A stretch of 32,699 nucleotides of DNA from Ignavibacteriota bacterium (GTDB lineage Bacteria > Bacteroidota > Ignavibacteria > UBA10030 > CAVZMI01): assembly GCA_963776275.1 (NCBI GenBank), contig CAVZMI010000030.1, positions 1 through 32,699 on the forward strand, in the 5' to 3' direction. The position numbers were made by a program, and so were the translations under genes. Shown here piece by piece: positions 1-26,741 of the stretch. Below the pieces are notes generated by a model that saw only the letters and a program-made list of their open reading frames with translations, had not been told where the DNA came from and searched no databases. Numbering within the stretch: position 1 is the first letter of the stretch; each line of letters starts with the position of its first letter.

Positions 1-434
1 ATAAACAACATCGGGACGCAAAAAACGCGCTGACCCCGATAAATCCCACTGGAGTACGTGGGCCCGTAAAGAACACGGAAACATCGGGGCAAGCGGAATG
101 AGCCCGCCTACGTTACAAAGCAAACTTCCGCCTTCGTTTCACTGCGGCGGACGAGTCGGCGGACAAGCGTGGTACGTTAAGCATGGCTTGCAACGGTTTA
201 ATATATTTTGAAGGCTATCAGCGTGAACTTGTTTCGTTATCAACAATTTGAACGTTTGTAATGCCGCAGCTCCCGCTTCAGTCCGTCTCGACAGAGTCGA
301 GACGAGACCTCGACAAAGTCGGGCGGGATACTCGATTCGACCACAATTTGATTGGACAACATCAAATTTGTCGAATCGGGATTATTTATCCGCCGGAGTG
401 TTGTTTACGAAGGCGGAGCCGCCATCCGTTAGGC
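1..434 (+). repeat. attC site 0 (5' end outside window), expanded by nested palindromic inserts
   Basis: Ends GCCGCCATCCGTTAGGC (R' 428-434). Shares GCTGAC..GGAATGAGC, TACGTTAAGCATGGC and GCCGCAGCT motifs with the other long attC sites. Confidence 0.85.
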
Positions 435-463
435 ATCAAAAACAATCAAGGAAGGAGCAGGTC

Positions 464-1087
464 ATGAAACGATTATATGGTCTTTTTGTTTTATTAATCG
501 TTCTTGTCTCATGTACCCAAAACGCCCCTAAAGTACTTCTCTTCGTACGGGATGGATCTCCACATTTAGGGTACATGCTCAACAAAGAAGTCGGTACCAT
601 GAAAGAAATACTCGAACAATCCGGTTTCAAAGTTACGATTGCGACAATATCCGGAGAAGTTTTAAAAACGGATTCGATATCTGTAACGCCTCATATTAAG
701 TTAGGCAATGTAAATATTGCTGATTATGCGGGATTCATTTTACCATGCATGGCCAGCGATTCCACACATTCAGAAACAGTATCTTTTATCAAAGAAGTGG
801 TAAAACAAGGGAAACCCATAGCGGCTCAGCTCGGTTCAGTAGTGACTCTGGCCCGAGCAGGCGTTCTTCAGGGTAAGAAATTTGCCTTTCCTGAAGGGAA
901 AGACATAAATGCGAGTATGTATCCAGAGTTTAATGGTAGCATTTATAGTGGAAAAGGTGTTATTCAAGATGGGCTCATTATTACCTCTGGAATCTGTCCC
1001 TGGATGGCAAAAATGCCGGGTTATCAGGATGGTACTGATGAACTTACTCGAGCATTAATCAATACGATAAAGGCAACAGCTAAATAG
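464..1087 (+). CDS. DJ-1/PfpI (class I glutamine amidotransferase-like) family lipoprotein, cassette 1
   Basis: ATG 464 after AAGGAAGGAG RBS. Lipobox-like LVSC. DJ-1-like segments (ADYAGFILP, GKPIAAQ, LARAGVLQGKK, VIQDGLIITS). The ORF-track extension to 248 runs through the attC. Confidence 0.8.
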   Translation: MKRLYGLFVLLIVLVSCTQNAPKVLLFVRDGSPHLGYMLNKEVGTMKEILEQSGFKVTIATISGEVLKTDSISVTPHIKLGNVNIADYAGFILPCMASDSTHSETVSFIKEVVKQGKPIAAQLGSVVTLARAGVLQGKKFAFPEGKDINASMYPEFNGSIYSGKGVIQDGLIITSGICPWMAKMPGYQDGTDELTRALINTIKATAK

Positions 1088-1150
1088 AAATACCTAATGT
1101 TTAATTTAGTTGAAAAATATTTATTTACATCATTACTTATGTTTATTTAT

Positions 1151-1274
1151 GCCTAACACCCGCATCAAGGTGGACGCGACCCAACCTCGCGATTTTTTAA
1201 AGTTGACAATACGCAGCCAAGAAAGTAACAGAATTTAACTTTGTGGGTCGCGCCACTTATGCTTGTCGTTAGGC
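1151..1274 (+). repeat. attC site 1 (124 bp, canonical, no inserts)
   Basis: R'' GCCTAAC 1151-1157 and R' GTTAGGC 1268-1274. The arm GCATCAAGGTGGACGCGACCCA pairs with TGGGTCGCGCCACTTATGC, with extrahelical bases. Confidence 0.92.
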
Positions 1275-1318
1275 GGCAAAACATTAATATGACAGAAGCG
1301 TAAAAAGCATCTAACGTA

Positions 1319-1618
1319 ATGGAGAGATTTGAAATTGCAGTTCAATCTCTAGCGACCGGACCTGGTGACGTCCGTTCTCGTTTAGAAAATGCTTTTTTGT
1401 CTATCGTTGTATTCCAAGAGAATGATTTGCCTAAAGAAATTCAAAAGGATTTCTCTTGGGTTGTGAAAAGTCTAACAAAAAAAGAATCTCGATATCTTAA
1501 TGAAGGATCGCTTCATTCTACATTAGCGCAAATAAAGAATGTAACTGGCTCTAAGATCGCTAAAAGAATTTTTGCCATGTATAAAACAATAATAAGACTA
1601 AAATCACAAGACAAATAA
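1319..1618 (+). CDS. Hypothetical protein, cassette 2
   Basis: 99-aa ORF that fills the space between attC1 and attC2. An in-frame upstream ATG at 1289 is followed by TAA at 1301-1303. Confidence 0.7.
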   Translation: MERFEIAVQSLATGPGDVRSRLENAFLSIVVFQENDLPKEIQKDFSWVVKSLTKKESRYLNEGSLHSTLAQIKNVTGSKIAKRIFAMYKTIIRLKSQDK

Positions 1619-1628
1619 CGGTTTTGCT

Positions 1629-1923
1629 GCCTAACCAGCAACTCAAGCTGACCGAATAAGCCCGCCTGCCTGCCGGAGGCACGCAGGCAGGCCTACGTTA
1701 AAAGGTAAACTTCCGCCTTCGTTTCACTTCCGCCTCCGTTCCACTACGGCGGACAGGCCGGCGGACGAGTCGGAGGGCGATCGCAGTCCGGTAGATGGTC
1801 TTTGAAACCATTCAAGAAGGTTGTGTTATGCCAATCCAGATAACATACTTGAATGAATCGACTAATAAGCAGCAAGCAATTGGGATGTTATGCGGGCAAA
1901 AGTAATAACTCCGCATGTTATGC
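1629..1923 (+). repeat. attC site 2 (left arm intact, right arm atypical)
   Basis: GCCTAACCAGCAACTCAAGCTGACCGAATAAGC left arm, then nested inserts. The family right arm is missing; three GTTATGC candidates lie at 1825, 1887 and 1917, so the end is uncertain. Confidence 0.65.
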
Positions 1924-1955
1924 GGATCAATCTAATTATTGTTTGGAGTATCAAA

Positions 1956-3500
1956 ATGAAAATACTAATGGTTCTATTAACGCTCCTATTGAACACACAA
2001 ATGTACGTTGATTCATTAGCTCAAGAAATGCCCTTCGTCTATGGAGTTGAAAACACGGGCGCGGACTGTCCGAAACCGCCTTTGCCTACATTCAACCAGC
2101 TCCCGACCATCAAAGTCCTACCCGACCCGTTCGAGTGGGCCGATAGCAGCGGTCGCATCTTGAACCTCTCCGATTGGCGGTGCCGGCGTGCCGAGATCGG
2201 CGCTGAGATCCAGCAATACGAGCTTGGGACCAAGCCAGCTCCTCCGGACAGCTTGGAAGCCAGCTTCTCTGCTGATAGCGTACTCACAGTGACCATAGTA
2301 GTGGGTGGAGACACACTCACGCTGACTTCGAAGATCACACTCCCAGATGGGTACGGCCCCTTCCCGGCCGTGATCGGTGTGGGATTTTTTCCGACGGGTA
2401 GTCTCCCACCCGACATCTTTACCAGTCGCCAGATCGCGACCATCCAATACACGGAATCGCAAATAACGAACGCTTGGTCAAACGTACGCGGCGATGGACC
2501 CTTCTTCAAACTTTATCCGGATAAAACAAGGAGCAAATTTGTCGCCTGGGCCTGGGGCATCAGCCGCATCATCGATGGGTTGGAGAAGTGCCCTGAAGCC
2601 AACATCGATCTCTCGCATCTGGCCGTGACCGGCTGCTCCTATGCCGGTAAAATTGCGCTCTTTTCCGGTGCGTTTGACGAGCGCATCGCGCTTACTATTG
2701 CGCAGGAGTCTGGTGGCGGGGGGTACACGGCCTGGCGCGTCACGGAGACCCTGAGCGGGAGCAGGGAAACTCTGAGGAACGCCCAAGGTCAAGCCTGGTA
2801 TTACTCGGGCCTCTCTCAATTCAACAACGCAGTTACAAAACTACCTTACGATCATCATGAGGTGATGGCAATGGTGGCGCCCCGCGCGTTGTTCGTGACC
2901 GGTAACCCCGATTATGAATGGCTGGCAGATGAATCCGGACACGTCGCGAGTAAGGCTGCATATGAGGTCTGGAAAGCTCTTGGGGTACCAGACAGGTTCG
3001 GCTTTTCTATTGTCAGTGGACATAGCCACTGCCTACTCCCGGATAGCCAGAGACCAGAGGTGATAGCCTTTGTGGAAAAGTTCCTCCTTGGGGACACGAA
3101 CGCGAATACAGACATATCGACCAGTCCATACAATACCGACCTTTCCCCCTGGATTACGTGGGATACACCTGAATTGGTTAATGATATGCCATCTTCTATA
3201 GGTAATTCTGAAAAAGTGATTGACCGATTCGCTCTTAAGCAAAATTACCCTAATCCTTTTAATCCAACTACAACGATACGATATTCGATAAGTTCACCAG
3301 AAGAGGTTTCAATTAAAATATATGATGTTTCTGGTCAGCTCGTTAAAGAAATTAGCAAAAATCAGAATCAAGCCGGGGAATACGAAGTTGTTTGGAATGG
3401 CAAAAATAATTTTGGCGAAAGAGTTACCTCCGGCATTTATTTTTACCAACTTGTGGTTGGTAATCATTCTGAAGCGAAGAAAATGATATTACTAAAATAA
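1956..3500 (+). CDS. Secreted CE15 (glucuronoyl esterase family) esterase with C-terminal FlgD-Ig/T9SS-like sorting domain, cassette 3
   Basis: Signal peptide, LPDPF, AWAWGISRIID, catalytic GCSYAGK, AFDERIALTIAQESGGGG, LPYDHHE and C-terminal QNYPNPFNPTTTI...SGIYFY. Start 1956 follows GGAG. Confidence 0.9.
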   Translation: MKILMVLLTLLLNTQMYVDSLAQEMPFVYGVENTGADCPKPPLPTFNQLPTIKVLPDPFEWADSSGRILNLSDWRCRRAEIGAEIQQYELGTKPAPPDSLEASFSADSVLTVTIVVGGDTLTLTSKITLPDGYGPFPAVIGVGFFPTGSLPPDIFTSRQIATIQYTESQITNAWSNVRGDGPFFKLYPDKTRSKFVAWAWGISRIIDGLEKCPEANIDLSHLAVTGCSYAGKIALFSGAFDERIALTIAQESGGGGYTAWRVTETLSGSRETLRNAQGQAWYYSGLSQFNNAVTKLPYDHHEVMAMVAPRALFVTGNPDYEWLADESGHVASKAAYEVWKALGVPDRFGFSIVSGHSHCLLPDSQRPEVIAFVEKFLLGDTNANTDISTSPYNTDLSPWITWDTPELVNDMPSSIGNSEKVIDRFALKQNYPNPFNPTTTIRYSISSPEEVSIKIYDVSGQLVKEISKNQNQAGEYEVVWNGKNNFGERVTSGIYFYQLVVGNHSEAKKMILLK

Positions 3501-3501
3501 C

Positions 3502-3910
3502 GCCTAACCAGCGGCTCAAGCTGACGCAAGGAGTCCGCGTACGTTAAGCATGGCTTGCATAGGTGAAGTGCAAATTTGTAAGCCAGAGGCTTATGAGCCT
3601 TTGGCTCAAAAATGAAGTGAATGAACCCGTCTCGCCGATGGCGAGACGAGGCTCGACTTCGTCGGCTTATTTCGTGTAGTACATTTTGAAAGTTATCACC
3701 TGCCTGTCGACTTGTCCGCTGAAACGAAGTGTAAGCGGAAGTGCCTTCGGCACGCAGACCCGCCTTAGTCCGGAGGACGTCAGCGGAGCAGTACTTTAGT
3801 ACGGCGGGCAGGCAGGGTGCGGCAGCGCGTTGTTTGCGTCCCGCGCTTTCGTGCTTTTTACGCCCCACGCTCTTTGAGGGGTTGCGAGGCTTAGCCGCCA
3901 TCCGTTAGGG
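3502..3910 (+). repeat. attC site 3 (409 bp)
   Basis: R'' GCCTAAC 3502 directly after the stop codon. GCGGCT(C)AAGC pairs with GCTTAGCCGC. R' GTTAGGG 3904-3910. The interior holds several GC-rich hairpin inserts. Confidence 0.88.
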
Positions 3911-3953
3911 CGTATTTTTATGAGTCCAGAAAATATCGAAATAATGTAAACGA

Positions 3954-4358
3954 ATGTCTCTTCGTCAGAAAATATTCTATGCAATATGTAGCATACTCGG
4001 AATGCTACTAATTATGATTGCACATGTTGTGCGTCCTTTCCTATATGGAAAATCAAATGCGGTTGTTTTTATTTTTGGATTATTGCCAAATTTGGCGGCG
4101 GCATTTTCTATACCTTTTCCAATTATGTTTTTCTGTATTCAATCACTCCGCTTTAAAATACGTACAAAAATGTTTTCCTGGCTGTTTATTCTAATTGTAA
4201 TCATAAGCATGGGTGGATTATTCATCTGGGAAGTAGTGCAAAAATTAATTTGGGATATGCCTTTTGATAACAATGATATCTGGGCAACAGGAATTGGTGG
4301 TGTATTATCCATTCTTGTTTACATCCTATTATTGAGTCCTAAAAAAAATACTGCCTAA
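3954..4358 (+). CDS. Small integral membrane protein (about 4 TM), cassette 4
   Basis: 134 aa with four hydrophobic stretches and an FDNNDI motif. The stop codon lies within R'' of attC4. Confidence 0.8.
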   Translation: MSLRQKIFYAICSILGMLLIMIAHVVRPFLYGKSNAVVFIFGLLPNLAAAFSIPFPIMFFCIQSLRFKIRTKMFSWLFILIVIISMGGLFIWEVVQKLIWDMPFDNNDIWATGIGGVLSILVYILLLSPKKNTA

Positions 4359-4612
4359 CCAGCAGTTCAAGCTGACGGTTGAGAGTTGGTTACGAAATTC
4401 ATGGCGAGTAGAGGTTCGGTGTTTAATAAAAAGCTTTTCAGAATGAACTTGGTTCGTTTAGTACTATTTTGAAAGTTTTCAACGCCGCAGCTCCCGTTTT
4501 GCGGGATCCTCGATTCGACCACAATTTGATTGGACAACATCAAATTTGTCGAATCGGGATTATTTATCCGCCGTAGTGTTGTTTACGTAGGCGGAGCGCC
4601 CATCCGTTGGGG
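4353..4612 (+). repeat. attC site 4 (260 bp), L' box interrupted by about 100 bp of hairpins
   Basis: GCCTAACCAGCAGTTCAAGCTGACGG ... GCCGCAGCT[insert]AGCGCCCATCCGTTGGGG. Confidence 0.85.
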
Positions 4613-4666
4613 CGCAGCGCTTTTTGTAATAATAGAAGTTATATGACATTTTAAAAAAATCAAAGT

Positions 4667-6295
4667 ATGAGACAAAACTTTTTCTATATATTATTTTTTT
4701 TCTGCAATGTATTAGCACATTCCCAGACTAACGAAGTAGCAAAAATAGACATACTTTTTAAACACTGGAATACATTAATTACTCCAGGATGTGCTGTCGG
4801 TATAATCAAGGACAATAAAGTAGCATTTACAAAGTGCTATGGTATGGCAAATCTTGATAATAATATATCGATCAATAATAATACGAAGTTTATAACTGCA
4901 TCTCTTACAAAACAATTTACAGCTTATTGCATTGCTATTCTTATTTCTCAAGGGAAATTGAGCTTAGAAGATGATATAAGAACATATCTTCCAGAATTTC
5001 CTTATTCAAAAGACACTTTGAGAATTAAACACTTAATATATCATACAAATGGATTACATGATTATAGCGCCTTAATGAGCATATGTGGTGATTCATATGA
5101 TGATTTAAACTATGAGCATATGATAAAAGAGAAAGTTTATTCTATATCAGTATCAAAATTTAAGCCCGGTGAAAAGTTTGAATATAGCAATAGCGGTTAC
5201 TATTTGCTTTCTGAGATAATTGAACATGTCTCTCAATTACGAATTGATGAATTTGCTCGAAAATACATCTTTAGTCCGCTTGGGATGAATGATACATTTT
5301 TTTATACGAATCCAAGAGCAAAGAGCAATAATATGGCCGTTAGCTATACACAGAATATTTTCGGAGATTATCAAAAACAGTACTCAACTACCCCACCATT
5401 TGGGTCAGGGAATTTAATTTCTACTTTACATGATTTATTATTATGGGAGCAGAATTTTTATAACGGCAAATTATCTAAAAACAAACTCAACTATTTGATT
5501 TTAAAGCAAGGGGTTTTGAATAAAGGCGATACCATTGATTATTGTTTTGGTTTAAAAATTGGAAAACATAAAGAGCTGAAAATCATTTATCATTTTGGCG
5601 ATTATAACTCATTTGAATCAGTTATTATTAGGGTTCCCAAATATAAATTATCAGTAATAATACTTGCTAATGATAAAATAGCAAAAACATACTTTGACAA
5701 TTATTCTTTGGCCGACAAGATAATAGATATATTTCTAGACCAGAGTTCAAATCCTAAGATCCCTGAAAACAGATTTAAACCATTTAGTTCGGAAGAATCA
5801 ATTAAAAAATATATTGGAGTGTATAAATCAAAGAATGGAATTACATCAATAAGCTATGATGAAGGGCAATTGAAATTAAGTCATTCATGGGGAAATTGGT
5901 ACTATTCAATTTTCCCAACCTCAGATAGTGTCTTTTGTGATGAGTATGATTTTGAATATACTTACAAATTTAAAATAAATGATAATAAAGATGTAATGGG
6001 ACTGTGGACTCAACATACAGGTTATATAGAAAAGATAAATGCTGATAGTGTTTTAAAATTATCAAATGATTACAGCGGAGCCTATTATTCAAAGGAATTA
6101 AATACAGTTTATAAGTTATACCAAGAAAAAGGAAAAATATATTGTAAAATCAACAGCAAGGCTTCGAAAGAATTAATAATTACAGGAAGGGATACTTTTA
6201 GATTAGATAAGAACGTTATAAAGTTAATTCGTAATGATTCAAAAATTATTAATAGAATTGAAGTGAATAATGAATATGTGTTTAAAAAATTGTAA
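4667..6295 (+). CDS. Serine hydrolase, beta-lactamase/AmpC-like fold with C-terminal extension, cassette 5
   Basis: Signal peptide, PGCAVGII, SxxK (SLTK), YSN (FEYSNSGY) and HFG motifs. Very AT-rich. Confidence 0.88.
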   Translation: MRQNFFYILFFFCNVLAHSQTNEVAKIDILFKHWNTLITPGCAVGIIKDNKVAFTKCYGMANLDNNISINNNTKFITASLTKQFTAYCIAILISQGKLSLEDDIRTYLPEFPYSKDTLRIKHLIYHTNGLHDYSALMSICGDSYDDLNYEHMIKEKVYSISVSKFKPGEKFEYSNSGYYLLSEIIEHVSQLRIDEFARKYIFSPLGMNDTFFYTNPRAKSNNMAVSYTQNIFGDYQKQYSTTPPFGSGNLISTLHDLLLWEQNFYNGKLSKNKLNYLILKQGVLNKGDTIDYCFGLKIGKHKELKIIYHFGDYNSFESVIIRVPKYKLSVIILANDKIAKTYFDNYSLADKIIDIFLDQSSNPKIPENRFKPFSSEESIKKYIGVYKSKNGITSISYDEGQLKLSHSWGNWYYSIFPTSDSVFCDEYDFEYTYKFKINDNKDVMGLWTQHTGYIEKINADSVLKLSNDYSGAYYSKELNTVYKLYQEKGKIYCKINSKASKELIITGRDTFRLDKNVIKLIRNDSKIINRIEVNNEYVFKKL

Positions 6296-6312
6296 ATAAA
6301 AATATAGCTGCG

Positions 6313-6701
6313 CCCTAACCAGGCGCTCCCCGTTAGAAAGCGGCGGGATTCTCAATTCGACCACAACTTACCTGTAAAACGGTAAGTTTGTCGAATTGGA
6401 ACAAGCTGACCCCGACAAAGAGCATGTCGGGGCAGGCGGAATGAGCATGCATATGTTAAAGAGCAAACTCCGGCGGACAAACGTAGTACGTTAAGCATGG
6501 CGAGCATAGGTTTAGAACAAATATGAAAGTTATCAGTGCCGCAGCTCCCGCTTTGCGGGATCCCTGCCTGCGTGCTGTAGGAACTACGGCAGGTAGGCTC
6601 GATTCGACCACAATTTGATTTGAAAACATCAAATTTGTCGAATCGGGATTATTTATCCGCCGTAGTGTTGTTTACGAAGGCGGAGCGCCCATCCGTTAGG
6701 C
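6313..6701 (+). repeat. attC site 5 (389 bp), both L'' and L' interrupted
   Basis: CCCTAACCAGGCGCTC[insert]AAGCTGAC[insert]GGAATGAGC ... GCCGCAGCT[insert]AGCGCCCATCCGTTAGGC. Confidence 0.85.
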
Positions 6702-6847
6702 CGCTTGCGCTTTTAAGATAGAAATTTGCTTCGATGGAAAATACGAGATATATTGACGCCAAAGGGAGAGAAAATAGATACCCCGATTTACATTTCGCAT
6801 TGAATTTATTAATAGTAGTGCATGTTTAACACATAAATTAAAAACAA

Positions 6848-8441
6848 ATGAAAACTAATTATTTGTTACTAATCATTCTTGGAAGCCTGTTTGTGGCATC
6901 CACATTTGCACAAAGCAATTCCAATAACAAATCCATATTACAGGAACGGGTTATCAGCCTTGATTTTAATAAAATCAAAGGGAACTTCACTACAATGTTT
7001 AAAGAATGCATTGGTGCCGGCCGCGCTAATGAAGGATTACGGGCGGATTGGCAACAACAACTGGCCTTTGTAAAGAAGGAATGCGATTTCAAATATATCC
7101 GCATGCACGGACTGTTAACAGACGATATGGGCGTTTACAGGGAAGATAAAAATGGAAATCCGGAATATAATTTTCAGTACATCGATGTTTTATATGATTA
7201 CCTTCTGAGTATCGGGATGAAACCTTTTGTTGAATTAGGATTCATGCCGGATGCACTGGCTAGTGGCAATCAAACCATTTTCTGGTGGAAGGGAAACGTC
7301 ACGCCACCTAAGGATTATAAAAAGTGGGAAGACTTAATCCGCAATCTTACCCTTCATTTCACTGAACGCTATGGTGCAGATGAAGTAAAGACCTGGTATT
7401 TTGAGGTTTGGAACGAGCCTAACCTGAGTGGTTTCTGGGCGGGAACGCAAGAGGAATATTTCAAATTGTATATGTATACCGTGAAAGCCATAAAAAGTGT
7501 AAACAAAGAATATCCGGGTTGGCGGACCTGCTACTGCCGGTGCCGCTTGGGTGCCTGAAATGATCGACTTCTGCAGTAAAAATGCGCTCCCTCTGGATTT
7601 TATCAGTACCCATTCTTATGGAGTCAAACAAGGATATCTCGATGAATTTGGAGTTTCAGGTACAGTCCTTGACAAAAATCCTATGAGCGTCAGCGGTGAT
7701 ATTCTGAATTCGCGTAAACAAATTGCAAGTTCCTCTATGCCAAATTTGGAACTACATTATACCGAATGGAGTTCATCCTACACACCCTTTGATCCAATTC
7801 ACGACAGCTATCATCAGGCTGCCTATGTGCTGGAAAAAATTAAACAAGTCGGAAATGCAGCGAATTCAATGTCATATTGGGTATTCACAGATATTTTTGA
7901 AGAAGCGGGACCGCGCTTTACACCTTTTCACGGCGGATTCGGATTGCTGAATTACCAGGCCATCAACAAACCAGCCTTCTATTCCTTCAAGTTCATGAAT
8001 ATACTCGGAAACATAGAGTTGATTAATACTGATACATGTTCTTGGGCATGCAAAAATGCAAAGGGCAACATTCAGTTACTTTTCTGGGATTTCACCAACA
8101 CACATCCCGGAGATTCTGTGAATAATCAAGTGTATTATATTCGCGATTTGCCAGCTAAATCAAAAGGGAAAGTAAAGATAAGTATATCAGGGATCCCGGA
8201 AGGTACCTATGCGCTTGAAATATATAAAGTAGGTTATCATATAAACGATCCATATTCTACTTATCTTGCGATGAACAAGCCAAAGCAACTTACTAAACAA
8301 CAGGTTGAGCAAATAAAGAAATTGAATGACGGTTCTCCTGTTTCTAATGAAATAGTAAAAGTGAAAACTGATGCAGCATTTTTAAAAGAACTGGATCTTC
8401 GTGAAAATGATGTTTTCTTATTGAATATGATTAAACAATAA
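6848..8441 (+). CDS. GH39 beta-xylosidase-like glycosidase, split by a +1 frameshift near 7514-7518, cassette 6
   Basis: Signal peptide, YIRMHG, KPFVELGFMP, WNEP (acid/base) in the first ORF and YTEW (nucleophile) in the second. Removing one base restores EYRVGGPATAGAAWVPEM and gives about 530 aa. Confidence 0.9.
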
Positions 8442-8574
8442 TGCAATTAAAAACCAACCACTATTTTTGAATAAGGCATAGATTTTTTTAAAATGAGTTT
8501 GAGATTAATAAACGGCACTTAACAACAGCTCATACGCCATGCGGGACGAGGATTTCAGGTAACTTTATCTAGCG

Positions 8575-8821
8575 GCCTAACCAGTCGCTCCCCGTTAGAA
8601 AGCAACGGGATTCTCAATTCGACCACAACTTACCTGTAAAACGGTAAGTTTGTCGAATTGGAACAAGCCCGCCTCGCCCCGCGATAATAGCCTTGTCATG
8701 CAAGGCGGGACGGGCTGACGGAATGAGCGCCCGCCTTCGTTGAAAAGCAAACTACGGCGGACAGGTCGGCGGGCAAGCGCCGGAGCGTTATTTACGAAGG
8801 CGGAGCCGCCATCCGTTAGAA
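8575..8821 (+). repeat. attC site 6 (247 bp), with inserts and most of the central family core lost
   Basis: GCCTAACCAGTCGCTC[same insert as attC5]AAGC... and GAGCCGCCATCCGTTAGAA end. Confidence 0.85.
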
Positions 8822-8916
8822 CGCAAAAATAACATTGCGTTGTTACACGGGTTTGCGGATATTTTCAAACCTTACACATAAATACAATATTAGCATCATC
8901 TTTTAAAGGCTTCAAA

Positions 8917-11331
8917 ATGGAAAACACAAAACTATTATCAGTTATTATTCTCATTTCAATTTGTACTTCATTATTATTGGGGCAAACATTTCAAAAAGAA
9001 TCGGATGGTATAGAGTTTAATGCATCGAATAACACAAATGGAATTAAAAAACTTAAGTTAAAGGTATTGAGCGACAACATTATTCAAGTAATTGTAACAC
9101 CTTCGAGTAAGTTTTCCATGCGCGGAAGCCTGATAATTACTGAAAAGTTGTTGACATCGCCAGTTTGGAAGGTTGAAGAGAACGGTAAAAACATAGTATT
9201 GTCAACTGCATCGGTTTCAGTTCGTATTGATAAACTTACTTCGAACCTTGAGTTTATTAAAAAAGATGGACAAATGATTCTGGCTGAAAGTGATAGGATA
9301 GTTAATAAGGCTAAGGTTGTTGGTGAAAATTGTTTCAATATCAAGCAATCATTTCAATATACGTTAGGCGAAACATTATATGGTTTAGGAAGTTTCCAGG
9401 ATGCCGATATTGCTTTAAATGGTAAAAAAATAACATTATTGCAAAAAAACCGCGACGATGTTGTACCGGTTATTATTTCTACCAATCATTACGGATTGAT
9501 TTGGGATAATTATTCCTATAGCGAGTTTAACGACACAAGGTGTAACTATTACCTGTGGTCAGAAGTAGCCGATGAAATCAATTACTTTTTCATTTATGGT
9601 GAGAATATCGATACAATAATTTCTGGATACCGCAAATTAACAGGTGTTGCGCCCATGTATCCCAAATGGGTCTATGGTTATATACAATCGAAGCAAAAAT
9701 ACAATACTCAGGATGAAATAGTTTCCATAGTAAAAGGGTTTCGCGAAAGGAAGTTCCCGCTTGATGTAATTGTTCAGGATTGGCAATACTGGCCTGATAA
9801 TCAGTGGGGACAAAAATCGTTTAACCGGAAGAATTATCCGAACCCCACTAAAATGGTAAATGATATTCACGATATGAATGCAAAGGTAATTATATCAATT
9901 TGGCCCAACATGACCAAAGGAACACCCAACCAGGTTGAGCTTGCCAAAATTAACGGGTTGCTGAAAGACAAGGAACATTTGAATATACTTATGCCCGAAG
10001 CAAGGCAAATGTATTGGAAGCAGGCTGACGATAGTCTTTTTTCTACTGGTATCGATGGCTGGTGGGCCGATTGCTCGGAAGGATATGACTCCGATTGGAC
10101 TTCTCCATTTTTTAAAATGTCCAATGTAAAATCGAATGAAGTAAATTCCGGTAATTTAAAATGGCTGATGAACAGTGGGCGTTATATCAATATTTATGCG
10201 CTGATGCACACCAAAGGCTTGTACGAAGGGCAACGATCAACACCCTCTCATAAAAGGGTTTACATTCTCACGCGTTCATCTTTTGCGGGAATGCAAAAAT
10301 ACGGGGCAAGTTATTGGACTGGCGATGTATCGGCCAATTGGGAGGAATATCGTATGCAAATACCCGCAGGTTTAAATTTTTGCATGACAGGGATTCCTTA
10401 TTGGACAACCGATATAGCCGGATATTTTATCAAACACGAACCGGGTTGGTGGTTTTCAAATGGTGTATTTGAAAAAGGTCAGGAAGACGAGGGATTTAAA
10501 GAACTTTATACGCGTTGGTTTCAGTTTGCAGCATTCTGTCCATTGTTCCGTGCGCACGGAGCTGATTTTTCCCGAGAACCCTGGGCTTTTGGAACTCCCG
10601 AATCGCGGACTTATCGTACATTGCTCAAATTTACCAACCTGCGTTACAGGTTAATGCCATACATCTATTCAATGGCATGGAAGATAACCAACGAGAATTA
10701 CACCCTCATGCGCGCTTTACCATTCGATTTCATGAATGATTCTGCAACCTATAATATCAATAACCAGTACATGTTTGGTCCTTCAATTATGGTAAATCCG
10801 GTAGTTAAACCAATGTACTACCATACCAACAATGTTAAAATAGATTCATCGGATTACAAAAGTGAAGTGTATTTGCCCAAAGGCGCACAATGGTTCGATT
10901 TCTGGACAGGCAAGCAATATGATGGTGGCCAAAATATTAAAGCAGATGCATCTTTCGAAACCATGCCCTTGTTCGTTCGGGCAGGTTCAATTATCCCATT
11001 CGGGCCTTTTATTCAATATTCAACAGAAAAAACCGATCCTCTCGAAATCAGGATTTATACAGGTTCCGATGGTGAATTTAGCCTGTATGAAGATGAAAAC
11101 GATAATTACAGTTATGAAAAAGGTGTTTATTCATTAATCTCATTCAAATGGGACAATGCCCAAAAAATATTAACAATTAGTGATAGAAAAGGTGATTTTC
11201 CCAGTATGCAAAAAAATAGGACATTTAATGTCGTAATTGTGAGTGATAGTAAAGGAAAGGGTGTTGAAACTACAGAAATACCTACAACAACTATTCAGTA
11301 CGTTGGTAAAAAGATGGTTGAAATATTTTAA
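8917..11331 (+). CDS. GH31 glycoside hydrolase (alpha-xylosidase-like), cassette 7
   Basis: Signal peptide, PLDVIVQDWQYW, GWWADCSE nucleophile region, WTGDV, PYWTTDIAG, RWFQFAAFCPLFRAHG and a C-terminal LYEDENDNYSYEKG domain. Confidence 0.93.
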   Translation: MENTKLLSVIILISICTSLLLGQTFQKESDGIEFNASNNTNGIKKLKLKVLSDNIIQVIVTPSSKFSMRGSLIITEKLLTSPVWKVEENGKNIVLSTASVSVRIDKLTSNLEFIKKDGQMILAESDRIVNKAKVVGENCFNIKQSFQYTLGETLYGLGSFQDADIALNGKKITLLQKNRDDVVPVIISTNHYGLIWDNYSYSEFNDTRCNYYLWSEVADEINYFFIYGENIDTIISGYRKLTGVAPMYPKWVYGYIQSKQKYNTQDEIVSIVKGFRERKFPLDVIVQDWQYWPDNQWGQKSFNRKNYPNPTKMVNDIHDMNAKVIISIWPNMTKGTPNQVELAKINGLLKDKEHLNILMPEARQMYWKQADDSLFSTGIDGWWADCSEGYDSDWTSPFFKMSNVKSNEVNSGNLKWLMNSGRYINIYALMHTKGLYEGQRSTPSHKRVYILTRSSFAGMQKYGASYWTGDVSANWEEYRMQIPAGLNFCMTGIPYWTTDIAGYFIKHEPGWWFSNGVFEKGQEDEGFKELYTRWFQFAAFCPLFRAHGADFSREPWAFGTPESRTYRTLLKFTNLRYRLMPYIYSMAWKITNENYTLMRALPFDFMNDSATYNINNQYMFGPSIMVNPVVKPMYYHTNNVKIDSSDYKSEVYLPKGAQWFDFWTGKQYDGGQNIKADASFETMPLFVRAGSIIPFGPFIQYSTEKTDPLEIRIYTGSDGEFSLYEDENDNYSYEKGVYSLISFKWDNAQKILTISDRKGDFPSMQKNRTFNVVIVSDSKGKGVETTEIPTTTIQYVGKKMVEIF

Positions 11332-11486
11332 GCTGATAAGTTATGAAGAATAGAATAAAATGTCCGCTAACATCGGCCCATACTGAATGCAGGGTTCGGC
11401 GGTTTGTAACAGCGGAAACATTTGCAACCGCGAAAACTCTCGCTGCTATAGCAGAGAACTGTTAAATAACATTTTCACCGTTTGCG

Positions 11487-11821
11487 TTCTAACCAGCGGC
11501 TCAAGCTGACCCGACTACGTCTTGAGAAACAGACTTCCGCCTCCATCCGCCGCCGGTGGATTCCGGCGGACAGGCTCGCCTCGCTCCGCTCGGCGGAGCG
11601 GGTCGTCGAGGCCAGGCCGAACGAGCGCCCGCCTTCGTGCTTTGCACTTCGGCGAGTAAATGGGTACATTTTTCATGGCTAATAGTGGGTTATCGTACAT
11701 TAATTAGGTTTATAGTATATTCAATTTAAGTGGTAATCAATTTAGTGTTGAGAATAAACTTGTTTCGCTTGGTGCAAGTTGCGAGTAATAGTTGCCGCAG
11801 CTTAACCGCCATCCGTTATGC
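11487..11821 (+). repeat. attC site 7 (335 bp)
   Basis: TTCTAACCAGCGGCTCAAGCTGAC[insert 11511-11617]CGAACGAGC ... GCCGCAGCTTAACCGCCATCCGTTATGC. The L boxes are intact. Confidence 0.88.
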
Positions 11822-11888
11822 AATAACTTTAGATTATAGATAATTAATGATTATTTTTTTTCGAACATCTAAATGAAGGGAGGATTTA

Positions 11889-13449
11889 ATGAATCAATCC
11901 ATTACTAAAGTCGAACGTACGAAGGTTCTTCCGGTCAACCGTTATCACAAATCAGATTCCGTTCCCTTTTCGGTTTTTGACATTAATAAGGCTCCTCTGA
12001 AGGATCTTGTATCAAAATTCAAAATAAGCACTGGCGCCGCAAAGGCGGTTATATCTGCAAGGAGAAGAAATAAAATCAACGTCTCAACTGAAATCTTGAA
12101 TCTCAAAGAATTGCGGCATCGTGATTTGGAGATTTTGCGGAGATGTGGTTATGGCAAAAATAACTTGAAATTTGCTATAGCCGATGTGCAGCCCGATAGC
12201 AATTATATTTATAGTTATAGACCTTTTGCGCTTAAAATTTCTGTCTTGAATCCATCCTTAAGAAGACTATTGTTGGTATCGGCGAAAGTTTTTTGGAAAG
12301 GAAAGCCCTTTATTGTAGAAAAAGAAATTTCTCAAGCCGAAATAGAGCAGGGCAGCATATTGCTGAACTTCAATGAGAAGCAGACATTACCCCCTAGACC
12401 GGCGGCATTTCATGTCGATATATTTGATAGTGAAGGTGGGCAGAGTTCATTTAAAGTAACTTGTGTCGTCTTACCTTCCAATCCATTGTCGCTCTACCTT
12501 GCGCCGGAGATATATAAGGTGACCGGTACGTACAGTCTTAGAGGATACTATGATTCAGGGACAAATAATTTTGTCACCGTGGTGAAAATTTCAATTTTTA
12601 ACGGGAATCCTTTCAGCGTTGCCATATCACGCTACATTAAATGGGAATATTGGGACGGTGGTGTCGGTGGTTCACTCATTGAATCCAATACCCACGATCT
12701 CGGTGGTAATTTTACCATCGGTGCAAATAATACGTGGAGCATTGATCTCTATTTTACTTCACCTCCCGGAAGCGGTATCTATAATACGTATCAAAATAAA
12801 GAAGATATGACGGTAAAAATTGAGATGAACAGTACTGACGGGACCATTATTAACGATACGATTACTGCAAGGGTGATGCTTGCCTTTGGTGTCGACATCA
12901 CTAGGGTCGCAAGCGATACATTCGTCGGACAAGAATATACCGATCTCTATGATGCCGTTGATGTAACAAAAACAATTTATGAAGCCCGAGATATCACTAT
13001 CAGAGATATTGGCAGGTATTATATTACGGACAGTGATGCAGGTAGTTACAAATATATTAATTCTGATTCTGAATGTCACAATTTGTTTAATGATTGGACG
13101 TGCTACGACCCAACTGGTTTCAATATCGATGTTTTTATCGCACACGATTTTGTTGGTGTGAGCTTCGATGGACTTGCTGGTAGCATCCCCTGGACCGATG
13201 AGTGACTCGGGAAGTAATAGCGGAGTCGTGGCTGATAAAACCGGGTACGTCGATGGTTCAGGAACAAAAAGGCTCTCGGTTGATTATCTAGGAATGCTAG
13301 TCGGACATGAAGTTGGACATTACCTTGGTCTCGTTCATATCTCGGAAGCCGGGAATCTGATGCTTGCGAGCAGCGGAACAAATGATACGAACTTAAATTA
13401 CGATCAATATAGAACCATTATGGGTTATGGTCGTGTATTTATCTTTTAA
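11889..13449 (+). CDS. Multidomain protein: N-terminal ComEA-like helix-hairpin-helix, beta-rich middle, C-terminal metzincin Zn-protease; +1 frameshift at CCCC 13187-13190; cassette 8 gene 1
   Basis: FDINKAPLKDL...ISTGAAKAVISARRR follows the HhH pattern. HEVGHYLGLVH (13306-13338) plus a GNLM Met-turn. Removing one C joins the two ORFs as AGSIPGPMS (about 519 aa). GAAGGGAGG RBS. Confidence 0.75.
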
Positions 13450-13467
13450 AAAAAGGAGAATAAGCAA

Positions 13468-14115
13468 ATGGCTATACCACTTACCCCGATAGCTGGCAAA
13501 GAAGTAAAATTCATTCTTAATGAACCGGCAAAAGAAATTAAAGGTGGACTTGAAAGAGAATCTACACTTATTTCAAGAGAAAAATACAAACAGATATTAG
13601 TAAGAGAACACCTTAACAAGATATTGCTTAATCATTGCAGTAATGAAGAAATTGCAAAAATGCTAAGGCCTGAACATGAACCCATACTTCACAAAATCTG
13701 CCTTGAAAGTGTTACAACAGGCTCACATCCTATGATAAGAAAAAAAGCTATTTTGGCACTTAGACATTATTTTACAAAAGAGAGTATAAACTTACTAACA
13801 GAACTTGCCATTAGTGGTGAAGATGAATATATAAGGAGCAATGCACTAGGCTCTCTCTCTGCTTTTAAAACGGCATTTTCAGTTCCTTTGCTGATAGAAG
13901 CACTAAAAGACACTTCGGATATGGTAAAGAATTCTGCGAGGGTGGGACTTAAAAATGTTATTTTGGATACCGAAGGTAAAAATGTACTGATAGCAGCGAT
14001 GAAGAAAACAAAAAATATTCAGCTTAAAAAAGAACTGAAAGAAATAATTGAAGGAAAGATACAAAAGAGCAAAAAGCCACTATCTAAACCACGACATGCA
14101 AAAAAAGACAAGTAA
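13468..14115 (+). CDS. HEAT-repeat protein, cassette 8 gene 2
   Basis: HEAT/PBS-like repeats (IRKKAILAL, EDEYIRSNALGSL, LIEALKDTSDMVKNSARVGL). AAGGAG RBS. No attC separates it from the upstream gene. Confidence 0.82.
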   Translation: MAIPLTPIAGKEVKFILNEPAKEIKGGLERESTLISREKYKQILVREHLNKILLNHCSNEEIAKMLRPEHEPILHKICLESVTTGSHPMIRKKAILALRHYFTKESINLLTELAISGEDEYIRSNALGSLSAFKTAFSVPLLIEALKDTSDMVKNSARVGLKNVILDTEGKNVLIAAMKKTKNIQLKKELKEIIEGKIQKSKKPLSKPRHAKKDK

Positions 14116-14119
14116 TGTA

Positions 14120-14190
14120 GCCTAACAAATGCTTCCACATAACGCTCCTTTCGCCAAGTTTGATCGAGCGGGTAAAGTACGCCGTTAGGT
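14120..14190 (+). repeat. attC site 8 (71 bp, short type)
   Basis: R'' GCCTAAC 14120-14126, inner CGCTC/GAGCG stem and R' GTTAGGT 14184-14190. Confidence 0.8.
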
Positions 14191-14236
14191 AGCCAATCTA
14201 TCACAGGCTTGTCAACAGAGCGAAGAATGCGAGGAA

Positions 14237-14746
14237 ATGATGATTCACCCATTGGTTACTCAGTTGCAGTTCACCCGTAGCGAGTTCGTGCGCTGTTTTG
14301 AAGGAGTGCCTCCCGAAGATGCGTGCCGTCGCCTGGAGTCGATGAATTGTCTGAGCTGGATCGTCGGTCATCTGGCATGGCAAGAGCACTTCTTCTGGGT
14401 ACAGATGGCTCAAGGTCAGAACATTGCCTCTGGCTTGCGTCAACTCGTAGGCTTTCGCCAACCAGCCAGTACACCACCTTGGGATGAGATGTGGACTTTG
14501 TGGCACGCTATCACCAAGGCAGCCGACGTGTACCTGTACGGGCTGAAACCGGAAGAGATGAACACCCACTTCGTATGGGAAGGCAACCCCATAGCGGAGA
14601 ACGTTGGCATTTTACTCTTGAAAAATATCTATCACTACTGGTTTCATCTTGGCAAAGCCCATGCGATACGTCAGATGCTGGGACATACCGATCTGCCAGT
14701 GTATGTTGGCAATATGCCCAACGTGAGATTTGCGCTCGAGGGATAA
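14237..14746 (+). CDS. DinB/YfiT-family protein, cassette 9
   Basis: MNCLSWIVGHLAWQE and HYWFHLG His motifs typical of the DinB four-helix fold. GAGG RBS. Confidence 0.88.
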   Translation: MMIHPLVTQLQFTRSEFVRCFEGVPPEDACRRLESMNCLSWIVGHLAWQEHFFWVQMAQGQNIASGLRQLVGFRQPASTPPWDEMWTLWHAITKAADVYLYGLKPEEMNTHFVWEGNPIAENVGILLLKNIYHYWFHLGKAHAIRQMLGHTDLPVYVGNMPNVRFALEG

Positions 14747-14761
14747 TGGAGGCGATTGGCT

Positions 14762-15310
14762 GCCTAATCAGCGCATCCCCGAAAAAAGAATTTGGGGCAG
14801 GCAAGACCCGATAGATCCTACTGGACCCCACAATCCCACATATCCCACAAACAACGTGGGACCGTAAAGAACACGAAACGTGGGACGTGAAGAACACGGG
14901 AGAAGGGGATGTAATTTGCATGTCGAGTGTCGATCATCAAAAGTCATGGAGTCCCGTAGGGACGGAATCTTGGTAGAAAACGCAAAACAAAATCCATTGA
15001 GCTCCGTCAGGGGCGGAATCTTGAAATATGTACCATGCATAAAAAGATTCCACCCCTACGGGGTTATGATATTTATGTGAAAGCGAATACTACCAAGATT
15101 TCACCTCTATGAGTCGTAGACCCCATCGGGGTTTGGTAATTTCGAAGGTGTACGATATGTGATCTCTACGAACCCTTCTTATAGAACATGGAACCATATC
15201 GGGGCAGGCCGAATGAGCCCGCCAAAAGATTCCGCCAGTCCCGTACAGAGCACGGGACGTAAAGAACACGAAAACGGCGGACGCACGAAACGCGAAAGCA
15301 TGGTGGGCAA
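14762..15310 (+). repeat. Degenerate terminal attC site 9 filled with nested repeats
   Basis: Mutated R'' GCCTAAT. GATTGGCTGCCTAAT complements GTTAGGTAGCCAATC at 14184 (13/15). Family motifs CGAATGAGCCCGCC and AAGCATGG are present; no right arm or R' was found. Confidence 0.65.
14951..15113. repeat. GTAG-type REP cluster (two forward, two inverted units; REPIN-like)
   Basis: GTCCCGTAGGGACGGAATCTTGGTAG (14951), GCTCCGTCAGGGGCGGAATCTT (15001), inverted AAGATTCCACCCCTACGGGGT (15044) and inverted CTACCAAGATTTCACCTCTATGAG (15090). Confidence 0.75.
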
Positions 15311-15388
15311 TGAAAAAATATTTCCTTCCCTCATATACAGGACCCGCGAGCGAGGGATGCATCATGTAACTGCTTTCAATCCTTCATA

Positions 15389-15426
15389 TAATAACGCTTG
15401 ACATTAATAACGGGAAGTGTTATTAT
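15389..15426 (+). promoter_or_regulatory. Sigma70 promoter of higBA with overlapping palindromic operator
   Basis: TTGACA 15398-15403, 17-bp spacer, TATTAT 15421-15426. Inverted repeat TAATAAC-N7-GTTATTA at 15405-15425 and a further TAATAAC at 15389. Confidence 0.8.
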
Positions 15427-15431
15427 ACCAT

Positions 15432-15713
15432 ATGATAAAGACCTTTAAGAATAAAGAAACAGAAAAAATATATGACCGTGAGTACTCGAAGAAGTTGCCA
15501 AGCGATATTCAGAGAATCGCAATGAGAAAACTATGGATGCTTGATGCAGCCCCTGATATTTATTCTCTTCGAGTTCCTCCTGGTAATAGGCTGGAATCGT
15601 TACACGGAGCTCGCGAGGGGCAATATAGTATCAGAATAAACGATCAATGGAGAATATGTTTTCGATGGCATGATGGCAATGCCTATGACGTTGAGATAAT
15701 CGATTATCATTAA
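15432..15713 (+). CDS. higB: HigB toxin (RelE/ParE family)
   Basis: MIKTFKNKETE..., LRVPPGNRLESLHG.REGQYSIRINDQWRICFRW...VEIIDYH. The toxin precedes the antitoxin. Confidence 0.95.
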   Translation: MIKTFKNKETEKIYDREYSKKLPSDIQRIAMRKLWMLDAAPDIYSLRVPPGNRLESLHGAREGQYSIRINDQWRICFRWHDGNAYDVEIIDYH

Positions 15714-15724
15714 GGAGAGAAAAA

Positions 15725-16027
15725 ATGTCCACAAAAAAAATACAGCCGATCCATCCAGGAGAAATTCTTAAGGAAGAGTTCTTGGATCCGATGGGAATTT
15801 CTCAATATCGCCTTGCGAAAGATATCAATGTACCAGCAAGAAGGATCAACGAAATCGTCCATGGAAAACGCTCGATCTCCGCTGATACCGCATTGAGATT
15901 ATCGCGGTATTTCAAGGTGTCTCCCATCTTCTGGATTAATTTACAGGCGCATTATGATATCGAGATTGCGCGAGACAAATTATCATCAAGACTCGACAGG
16001 GAGATTAAGGTATATGCTGCCGCGTAA
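15725..16027 (+). CDS. higA: HigA antitoxin (HTH-XRE)
   Basis: PIHPGEILKEEFL, RINEIVHGKRSISADTALRL and FWINLQ motifs. Confidence 0.95.
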   Translation: MSTKKIQPIHPGEILKEEFLDPMGISQYRLAKDINVPARRINEIVHGKRSISADTALRLSRYFKVSPIFWINLQAHYDIEIARDKLSSRLDREIKVYAAA

Positions 16028-16111
16028 ACGAACGTGGTAGAAATACATTCCATCTTCGGGAATTTCTCGGCGTTTTTTGTGTTCATATATTTAGTGATTT
16101 AATCGATATCT

Positions 16112-17014
16112 ATGAATTCTAACAATACAAAAATACCTGAGATTGCACGCCGCCCACCCTGGCTGAAAGCAAAATTACCGGGCGGACAAAATTACGCTCA
16201 TCTACGTTCCATTATCGACACATATAAATTGAATACGGTATGCGAGGAAGCACGGTGTCCTAATATGGGCGAATGCTGGAACGCCGGAACCGCCACATTC
16301 ATGATTCTCGGAGATATATGCACACGAAGCTGTACGTTCTGTGCGGTGAAAACCGGACGTCCCACATTGCTCGATACCGATGAACCACGGCGTGTTGCCG
16401 AGACGATCAAATTGATGGGAATCAAGCATGCCGTAATTACATCGGTAAATAGAGACGAACTGGAGGATGGGGGGGCAAGGATTTTTGCCGAAACAATCCG
16501 CTCGGCACGGGAAATCGTGCCTGTACTCCGGATCGAAGTGCTGATCCCCGATTTCCAGGGTGATGAAGATGCCCTCAACATTGTTCTGGACGCCAAACCC
16601 GATGTTCTCAATCATAACGTCGAGACGATTTCTCGCTTGTACCCGACAGTCAGACCGCAGGCGAAGTACGATCGTTCACTCCAGCTTCTCGACCGTGCTA
16701 AACGCCGTAATGCCGTCACCAAATCAGGTGTCATGGTAGGTCTCGGAGAGGAGTTTGATGAAATTGTAGAGGTCATGAAAGAACTCAGAGAAGTAAATTG
16801 TGATATTATTACAATCGGTCAATACCTCCAGCCTACGAAGAATCATCATCCCATTATTCGTTATGTCCCCCCCGAAGAATTCCTGAAATTCCGGGAGATA
16901 GGATACTCGATGGGCTTCAAGCATGTCGAATCCGGTCCGCTTGTACGCAGCTCATACCACGCGGAACAGCAAGCTGGAGCGCATACTGCAAATATTTCCT
17001 CGGAAAATTCTTGA
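16112..17014 (+). CDS. lipA: Lipoyl synthase
   Basis: [20 protein letters not shown] and RSSYHA motifs. Confidence 0.98.
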
Positions 17015-17950: not shown

Positions 17951-18190
17951 GCATACTTCCTGATTTTGTCGGAAGTGCTCATATGTGCTGAATCCCCCCC
18001 GATATCCAGTCCCTGCCTGCCCGCCGACGTCCTCCGGACTAAGGCGGGCCTGCGTGCCGGAGGCACTCCGGCCGGCAGGCGCTATAACGGCCCGTCCACC
18101 GGGCCTAAAAGGAGAGGCGGAAGTCGGAATCGGGATTAAGCAATAGAGTCCTGACAGAGCGTGACGGAAGTAGAAGGCGGCAACTAAAAA
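17951..18190 (+). promoter_or_regulatory. Structured rpsB leader (probable S2 autoregulatory RNA) carrying an inserted repeat
   Basis: Long-range pairs TACTTCC 17954 / GGAAGTA 18166 and TGCTGAATCCC 17986 / GGGATTAAGCA 18132, located upstream of rpsB. Confidence 0.55.
18011..18080 (-). repeat. Palindromic mini-element of the same family as in attC3
   Basis: 18026-18066 is the reverse complement of 3741-3781 (39/41). CCCTGCCTGCCCGCCG also matches the reverse complement of about 3802-3817. Confidence 0.9.
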
Positions 18191-26736: not shown

Positions 26737-26741
26737 TCATT

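Follow-up and report, generated by a model that had tools for sequence, protein, structure and literature searches.

Genes for CE15, GH39 and GH31 enzymes carried as cassettes of an integron-type array in an Ignavibacteriota contig

The array and its three CAZyme genes

The window analysed here, a stretch of 32,699 nt from an Ignavibacteriota bacterium that is apparently an entire contig (CAVZMI010000030.1), carries from position 1 to about 15,400 an integron-type array of nine cassettes with ten genes, three of which encode carbohydrate-active enzymes (CAZymes), namely a CE15 glucuronoyl esterase, a GH39 β-xylosidase-type enzyme and a GH31 α-xylosidase-like enzyme. In gene order, the cassettes encode a DJ-1/PfpI-family protein, a 99-aa unknown protein, CE15, a 134-aa hydrophobic protein, a serine hydrolase, GH39, GH31, a zincin-motif protein together with a HEAT-repeat protein, and a DinB-family protein; the toxin-antitoxin pair higBA and then core genes, from lipA on, follow. 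All ten genes lie on the plus strand, as do ten attC sites or remnants (A0 to A9) spread over 15 kb, whose R''/R' cores stand downstream of the genes in the manner of a cluster of attC sites lacking integron integrases (CALIN), and the window starts within A0. The GC content of the cassette genes ranges from 29 to 56%, versus 44-50% in the core genes. Pfam and profile matches agreed with the three CAZyme families assigned in an initial annotation of this DNA, as did hydropathy with its signal peptides, since the N-terminus of all three proteins is a hydrophobic, signal-peptide-like stretch with Gln behind it.

The CE15 gene (1956..3500, plus strand) matched the Pfam family GCE_fung (E 3e-76) and encodes, behind its signal peptide, a canonical enzyme of the CE15-B type with a C-terminal domain of the type IX secretion system (T9SS)/FlgD type. 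Its best match in the PDB was PrCE15 (8TRX, E 7e-123), with which it has in common the Cys/Glu/His pattern and a nucleophile motif, GCSYAGK, having Tyr in place of Arg (excerpt of PMC11345330); the triad motifs GCSYAGK, QESG and GHSHC aligned with 8TRX and 3PIC. Unlike PrCE15, the window enzyme is bacterial, bears the T9SS/FlgD-type domain and is cassette-borne. Because of this tail, which among the three CAZymes CE15 alone possesses, the enzyme is likely exported. One relative was found at 93% identity with the same domain layout and many at 57-83%, those named being from KSB1, Bacteroidales and Ignavibacteria. The gene is compositionally chimeric, with 56% GC (63% at third codon positions, GC3) in the catalytic part and 34% (GC3 26%) in the export tail.

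The GH39 gene (6848..8441, plus strand) encodes a signal peptide and no export tail. A +1 frameshift near 7510-7516, missed in the initial annotation, divides the gene into open reading frames (ORFs) 6848-7558 and 7551-8441, so that the acid/base Glu and the nucleophile Glu reside in separate pieces. The N-terminal piece matched GH39 β-xylosidases of known structure (PDB 6YYH, 1PX8, 2BS9) with an E-value of 6e-69, and the WNEP and YTEW motifs are present; in contrast to those enzymes, the window protein has a signal peptide and is frameshifted in the assembly. An intact protein of 530 aa (P0121) shares 97% identity with it, about 20 clusters stand at ≥85%, and a search against plasmids returned 29 records, all below 60% identity. 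A four-letter read-through of the frameshift gave an open frame with 0 of 7 words. Two more +1 shifts occur in the contig, one near 20197 in pyrH (19632-20385), whose profile match is split into 1-187 and 178-232, and one at 13191 in the zincin gene, which has one extra base relative to a related assembly (L002, see below). Since three +1 shifts occur, including one in the normally essential pyrH, the GH39 frameshift is probably an assembly error, and a true pseudogene is less likely, as pyrH and the zincin gene carry the same type of error.

The GH31 gene (8917..11331, plus strand) is intact and encodes 804 aa with a signal peptide and no export tail. Its best PDB matches were the α-xylosidases BoGH31A and CjXyl31A (5JOU, 2XVG, 7KMP; E 4e-171). 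The catalytic Asp pair and the -1 subsite residues D288, D385, R453, D470, D499 and H547 all aligned (residue list from an excerpt of PMC4967831), and in a 60-sequence alignment D385 and D470, as well as Q23, were invariant. In contrast to BoGH31A, the window enzyme possesses neither a PA14 domain, its residue 207 jumping to 213 across BoGH31A 212-367 and Pfam giving no PA14 match, nor an equivalent of Trp513, and thus the subsites for xyloglucan oligosaccharides are missing, given that PA14 and Trp513 of BoGH31A bind extended xyloglucan oligosaccharides (excerpt of PMC4967831). To judge from these residues, its substrates may be shorter or different α-xylosides.

Both GH39 and GH31 have cleavable-type signal peptides with neither tail nor lipobox. 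In Bacteroidota, a signal peptide without a tail or lipobox usually leads to the periplasm, and the two enzymes accordingly look periplasmic by sequence. As exo-glycosidases without an export tail, needing imported oligosaccharides, they would depend on importers encoded elsewhere. The initial description of all three enzymes as secreted thus fits CE15, with its export tail, but not GH39 and GH31.

Cassette ends and attC sites

Every gene has a core in front of it and an inverse core behind it. Measured from R' to R'', the CE15, GH39 and GH31 cassettes are 1615, 1880 and 2672 bp long, as had been estimated initially. At positions 5-14 of the cassette ends, the nine cassettes matched their own partners at 8, 9, 3, 8, 9, 8, 9, 4 and 9 of 10 positions, a total equalled by just 11 of 362,880 re-pairings in a permutation over the nine cassettes. 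The R'/R'' complementarity that had been noted for GH39 and GH31 extends over 11 and 13 consecutive bases, respectively. The match was weak for the CE15 and zincin-HEAT cassettes, and the 5' boundary of the former, whose degeneracy had been overlooked, offers an R' candidate at 1887 with 7 of 8 core bases and 3 of 10 positions beyond the core. These cassettes are real, and complementarity of 11-13 bp between R' and R'' is the mark of circular cassette intermediates, barely drifted. Together with the variable content of the array (see below), the own-partner match upheld the earlier view of the CAZyme genes as integron-type cassettes.

In the following, fold z-scores were computed against 30 shuffles, and pfold with R and L pairing enforced in canonical IntI geometry. 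A bottom-strand hairpin that has extrahelical bases and in which the L boxes pair was recognized in A1, A3 and A7. A1 (1151..1274) is a canonical site of 124 nt with 5- and 6-nt spacers (z -4.5, pfold 0.26). A3 (3502..3910), CE15's own site, measures 409 nt and has an L box paired at 7/7 with an extrahelical base and spacers of 5 and 8 nt (z -4.9, pfold 0.67). A7 (11487..11821, 335 nt), that of GH31, likewise pairs its L box at 7/7 (one G-T) and holds both extrahelical bases, the second standing 7 nt further on, inside the 6-8 nt range given in an excerpt of PMC2727003; its z-score is -1.9 and its pfold 4e-3.

No such hairpin was found in A2, A4, A5 and A6. In A2 (1629..1893), R'' and L'' are intact and the matching 3' half is lost, a degenerate R' at 1887 (or 1917) forming the 5' end of the CE15 cassette, and A4 (4353..4612, 260 nt) has mismatched halves (z -3.1, pfold about 1e-10 or lower). 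A5 (6313..6701, 389 nt) and GH39's own site A6 (8575..8821, 247 nt) share a 74-nt palindromic insert (6329-6402 and 8591-8664, 72/74 identical), placed exactly after the L'' extrahelical base, where it splits L'' of A5. A5 keeps its R box pairing (P 0.92) with a canonical pfold of 8e-4 and z -6.9, and A6 gave z -6.2 and a pfold of about 3e-11. L' is interrupted in A4, A5, A6, one L002 site and A0 (1..434), a member of the long family that is truncated by the contig start and has R' at 428. At the far end, the short attC-like A8 (14120..14190, 71 nt; z -0.3) is no more stable than shuffles, and the degraded terminal A9 (14762..15330) is filled with palindromic repeats and has no R'. Each CAZyme cassette is thus bordered by at least one structurally damaged attC.

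The lengths of A3-A7 (247-409 nt) fall outside the 57-141 bp of an excerpt of PMC5371416, into which only A1 (124) and A8 (71) fit; this misfit lowers the case for a canonical attC, not for a site that works like attC. The long family has an L'-R' spacer of 8 nt, partly pairing with the 5-nt spacer, as against 6 nt in the canonical A1. A 111-nt module is common to A0, A4 and A5 at 91-95%, and in A4, A6 and the L002 site before the block shared with the window, the 5' half of one type is joined to the 3' half of another. Inside the GH39 and GH31 cassettes, tentative remnants of a second attC type stand between the stop codon and the host-type site, one an R''/L''-like 5' half (8517..8545) and the other a degenerate site (11365..11467) folding no better than shuffles, and a similar one was tentatively seen at a related GH31 locus (L009); these remnants hint at re-packaging.

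An Rfam scan of 1-16,200 gave 0 matches, and A7 searched against plasmids gave none. A custom attC scanner detected no sites beyond A1 and A3, apart from 2 chance matches, and a relaxed one (≤200 nt) A1 and one clear site at a related locus (L003) plus noise; both are too insensitive to show that attC is absent in relatives. Hairpins numbered 3.5 per kb within attC regions and 2.05 per kb in the rest, a weak difference.

Short palindromic elements, some nested, sit at the position of the L'' extrahelical base and at the facing L' position (6329-6402, 8591-8664, and the 3' halves of A0, A4, A5 and A6), and may reflect targeted insertion into folded attC sites. Similar mini-elements occur outside the array (17990-18090, 22290-22370), one between rpsI and rpsB being 78% like the A2 insert, and are therefore genome-wide. 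A cluster of imperfect inverted repeats at 14960-15130, which we take to resemble repetitive extragenic palindromic (REP) elements, interrupts the terminal attC and is absent at the same place in L002.

Relatives of the array and origin of the CAZyme cassettes

In one GTDB genome scan made with the 60-sequence GH31 alignment, the best 79 of 530 matches were taken, 23 of them close (62-79%). Among these, L002, a metagenome-assembled genome (MAG) of Bacteroidota, matched window positions 11809-14886, which comprise the zincin-HEAT cassette and that of DinB, at 97.4% nucleotide identity, and its attC sites belong to the family seen in the window. In the 8.2 kb upstream of this block L002 has none of the seven upstream cassettes of the window, and after DinB it shows another cassette-like gene where the window has higBA, so that array content varies between close relatives in this single comparison, the relatedness of the two hosts being deduced from the shared block and the attC family, as no housekeeping genes appear in the L002 flank. 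The contig of L002 begins with a GH31 gene of its own (77% aa identical) and a GH67 α-glucuronidase gene, behind which stands an attC 3' half of the same family; since its 5' flank is truncated by the contig start and no 5' attC half is evident, the cassette status of this pair is unproven. A quick 24-row tree, omitting three broken or partial sequences (L019, L023, L060) and using three distant rows as outgroups, grouped the window GH31 not with that of L002 but with that of L001, from an arabinose/CAZyme cluster of Bacteroidales (approximate likelihood ratio test, SH-aLRT, 95). This grouping points to separate acquisitions, and the L002 gene was rejected as the same cassette, being 77% identical and not sister. 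A second type of attC 3' end occurs twice in L002 (6340-6450, 5440-5530) and is loosely like window 1795-1830.

The genomic setting of the closest homologues, a check proposed in the initial annotation, was then compared for GH31. CAZymes, sugar-catabolism genes or SusC/SusD stood nearby in 19 of the 23 close loci, two of them (L016, L019) directly behind SusC/SusD. The remaining four are L014, among housekeeping genes, L015, with no context, L002, and the Bacteroidales locus L003, the only one of the 23 with attC-like flanks, where degenerate attC-like repeats, nearly identical to each other, stand on both sides of GH31 and the region has one more attC, which is well formed. ORFs around the 23 loci gave no recombinase match. 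In a test of the flanks in which gene starts in distant loci were placed crudely, the window scored 13 of 14. Both flanks were available for 66 of the 79 loci, including 16 of the 23 close ones, and none of these scored above 11, while among 4,422 swapped flank pairs 13 was reached by 1 and 11 by 103. The cassette state is thus the exception, and the usual home of this GH31 is a cluster resembling a polysaccharide utilization locus (PUL), with differing neighbours. The relatives do lack attC flanks, as the annotation had expected if the cassette reading were wrong, but they are not syntenic with this array, which it had expected as well.

Several of these loci had further features. The attC-like sites of L003 (1262-1393, 3974-4100, 6992-7122) have a long, partly paired L'-R' spacer, a geometry that may be common in Bacteroidota. 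At L012 and L020, the CAZyme cluster downstream of GH31 stops, in the manner of an integrated island, beside a sequence that looks by eye like a tRNA, and L017 holds two GH31 genes (1670-4123, 6946-9366) in one Mangrovibacterium CAZyme cluster. L014, a MAG of Bacteroidota, also matches window 25,900-26,889 at about 70% (DNA). These DNA-level matches to two Bacteroidota MAGs, L002 and L014, and the T9SS-type tail suggest a host of Bacteroidota/Ignavibacteria type.

CAZyme mobility in Bacteroidota is usually credited to whole PULs or conjugative elements. With sedentary chromosomal integrons and CALINs, such as the Vibrio superintegrons and those of Xanthomonas, the window shares several traits: the cassettes stand on one strand, each gene has behind it an attC with R/L boxes and extrahelical bases, the attC family is typical of the host, GC is mixed, the cargo is rich in signal peptides, a toxin-antitoxin pair is present, and content varies between close relatives. 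It differs from them in its long attC sites with 8-nt L'-R' spacers and palindromic L-box inserts, and in its cargo: the CAZyme genes span 1.5-2.4 kb, whereas cassette genes in a metagenome survey had a median of 402 nt and an odds ratio of 0.158 for the COG category of carbohydrate metabolism (excerpt of PMC7370490), which bears out the initial impression of atypically large carbohydrate cargo. The largest known cassettes are put at about 2 kb in an excerpt of PMC4889954. Signal peptides are enriched in cassettes (16.1% vs 6.8%, excerpt of PMC10661359; see also an excerpt of PMC10963911), and Bacteroidota integrons are known (excerpt of PMC8618304). By the excerpts at hand, the core integron of Saccharophagus degradans holds almost only unassigned genes (PMC2386152), and a permafrost preprint counts 154 CAZymes on mobile elements, in a set including 551 integrons, with no breakdown (10.1101/2025.02.12.637893). 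The open-access full-text literature, with subscription journals mostly outside it, yielded no paper devoted to integron cassettes that encode glycoside hydrolases or CE15, or to attC of this type; partial precedent exists. With Bacteroidota PULs such as the B. ovatus xyloglucan locus containing BoGH31A, the window has the same kinds of enzyme in common, and close GH31 relatives stand in such clusters. In contrast to PULs, it has attC-separated genes, unrelated cassettes interleaved, different polysaccharides targeted, and no SusC/SusD, regulator or endo-glycanase. This is an unusual cargo class in a variable array, and a CAZyme set without a complete degradation system.

Taken together, we consider it fairly probable that accessory enzymes from PUL-like clusters were packaged as cassettes and inserted by an integrase into a chromosomal array whose sites are now decaying, where they supplement the glycan systems of the host. 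On this view, an uncultured bacterium of Bacteroidota/Ignavibacteria type would carry a sedentary chromosomal integron-type array, of which the locus forms the distal end; as the contig begins inside an attC, the integrase end is unseen, and an integrase, if any, would lie past the contig break. The CAZyme genes would have been gained singly from the pool of accessory enzymes that related soil and sediment lineages usually keep in PUL-like clusters, and provided with attC of the host's own family. CE15, exported by the T9SS, would cut lignin-glucuronoxylan esters extracellularly, while GH39 (if intact in vivo) and GH31 would act in the periplasm, trimming β- and α-xylosides off oligosaccharides brought in by transporters that are encoded elsewhere, and so adding strain-variable debranching to a PUL-based system, not replacing it. 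After entry by integrase recombination, the palindromic L-box inserts may now impair excision of single cassettes, which would be retained more than shuffled. In model integrons, attC × attC excision falls 130-490-fold when one site loses its extrahelical bases and is abolished when both do (excerpt of PMC2727003), and cassettes of ≥1.5 kb excise worse next to a low-pfold site (PMC5371416); by these rules, excision of any of the three CAZyme cassettes singly would not be easy and is doubtful.

Several points weigh against this reading. Integrase-driven entry is deduced from anatomy, with neither integrase nor attI in view. Profile scans covered overlapping sets of 18, 14, 9 and 41 ORFs, part of the 127 window ORFs of ≥60 aa, and those of 18, 9 and 41 gave no match to a tyrosine recombinase or integrase, a gap that had escaped the first description. 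The genomic-context comparison covers GH31 only among the three CAZymes, the tree is a quick version, and GH31 has no counterpart of the aromatic +1 subsite residues of the xyloglucan-specific BoGH31A. As for locked cassettes, the near-perfect ends of GH39 and GH31 and the 72/74-identical insert of A5 and A6 suggest recent activity of sites already interrupted; a cognate integrase may read such sites differently, and may not need the canonical geometry assumed in the pfold values.

The initial annotation had gone further, seeing a shufflable glycan-degradation toolkit as an alternative to SusC/D-anchored PULs. An active integron that keeps and reorders a hemicellulose toolkit in place of such PULs would accord with 3 of 9 cassettes encoding CAZymes for xylose-containing hemicelluloses, with the fresh end complementarity, and with L002, in which GH31 and GH67 independently abut an array of the same attC family, although there only an attC 3' half is present and the 5' flank is lost. 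We regard it as quite unlikely. No TonB-dependent receptor, SusD or endo-glycanase was found in the four scanned ORF sets, nor a SusC/SusD pair beside the CAZymes, and the array was rejected as a PUL; GH39 and GH31 look periplasmic, every CAZyme cassette has a damaged neighbouring attC, and σ70-type promoter sites in the array (47 vs 42.4 ± 6.7 in shuffles) are at chance level. The enzymes address different linkages, namely a lignin-glucuronoxylan ester, a β-xyloside and an α-xyloside, and the remaining six cassettes have no connection with sugars; together with the CAZyme and PUL settings of the GH31 relatives, this leaves the claim of a PUL alternative unsupported. As for shuffling, array content does vary relative to L002, but active shuffling is unproven, given the damaged attC borders and the unseen integrase.

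A relic array without integrase activity, reshaped by homologous recombination between long near-identical attC repeats and holding the CAZymes as passengers or domesticated genes, would explain the hybrid sites A4, A6 and the L002 pre-block site, the common 111-nt module, the degraded terminal sites and the lack of a visible integrase. We judge it unlikely, as the cassette-specific complementarity of 11-13 bp has barely drifted, A1 and A3 are still well folded, and the integrase end is merely missing owing to the contig break inside an attC. Far outside the known length range as the sites are, with no Rfam match and three +1 frameshifts in the contig, the repeats might also not be attC at all but intergenic palindromes or terminators, or unrelated genes might have been joined via repeats in mis-assembly. 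This is highly improbable, since the order R''-spacer-L''...L'-spacer-R', the extrahelical bases and the cassette-specific end match could not come from generic palindromes, and 3 kb of the array as well as its site family recur in an independent assembly.

Returning to cassettes packaged from PUL-like clusters, the 2-3 kb CAZyme cassettes with relatives among PUL genes indicate that cassettes can arise from ordinary chromosomal genes whose origin is known, and they bear on cassette genesis in that donor context and cassette form are directly comparable; a new glycan-degradation strategy is not shown by this window. With its long sites full of inserts, the attC family points to a blind spot of current attC surveys. 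More speculatively, a Bacteroidota/Ignavibacteria lineage might run an integron with non-canonical attC (250-410 nt, 8-nt L'-R' spacer, L-box inserts tolerated) that repeatedly lifts hemicellulose-debranching genes of 2-5 kb from PULs into cassettes, as with CE15, GH39 and GH31 in the window and, independently, GH31 and GH67 in a relative. If so, standard covariance models would probably miss this attC family, the carbohydrate depletion of cassettes would in part be a detection bias, and integrons would be a route, so far overlooked, by which degraders in soil and peat exchange CAZymes and tune their substrates at strain level.

Other cassettes and the array end

The remaining features are likewise on the plus strand. 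The first cassette gene (464..1087) gave a profile match to DJ-1/PfpI-family proteins and encodes a putative lipoprotein; the 99-aa protein (1319..1618) had Atlas matches to hypothetical proteins only, and the 134-aa hydrophobic protein (3954..4358) is membrane-protein-like, with no family. The serine hydrolase (4667..6295; 29% GC, signal peptide) is D-aminopeptidase-like with a β-lactamase fold, its best match being D-aminopeptidase, and falls far below all curated β-lactamase cut-offs shown. In the two-gene zincin-HEAT cassette (11889..14115; L002 8319-10543), the zincin protein, intact at 519 aa in L002, has a C-terminal zincin motif, a main part without family match and no signal peptide in the cassette. 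The DinB/mycothiol-S-transferase-family gene (14237..14746) is also common to L002. PADLOC on 13 proteins gave no convincing defence match, and a scan for the Bacteroidetes -7 motif, in the form we assume for it, counted 41 vs 25 ± 4.6, mostly on the minus strand within genes and hence uninformative.

The array ends at higBA (15417..16027), behind which the core genes run lipA-rplM-rpsI-rpsB-tsf-pyrH-frr. A σ70-type promoter matching at 11 of 12 positions (15398-15426) precedes higBA and overlaps a 13-bp inverted repeat (15387-15427) that is likely the HigA operator.

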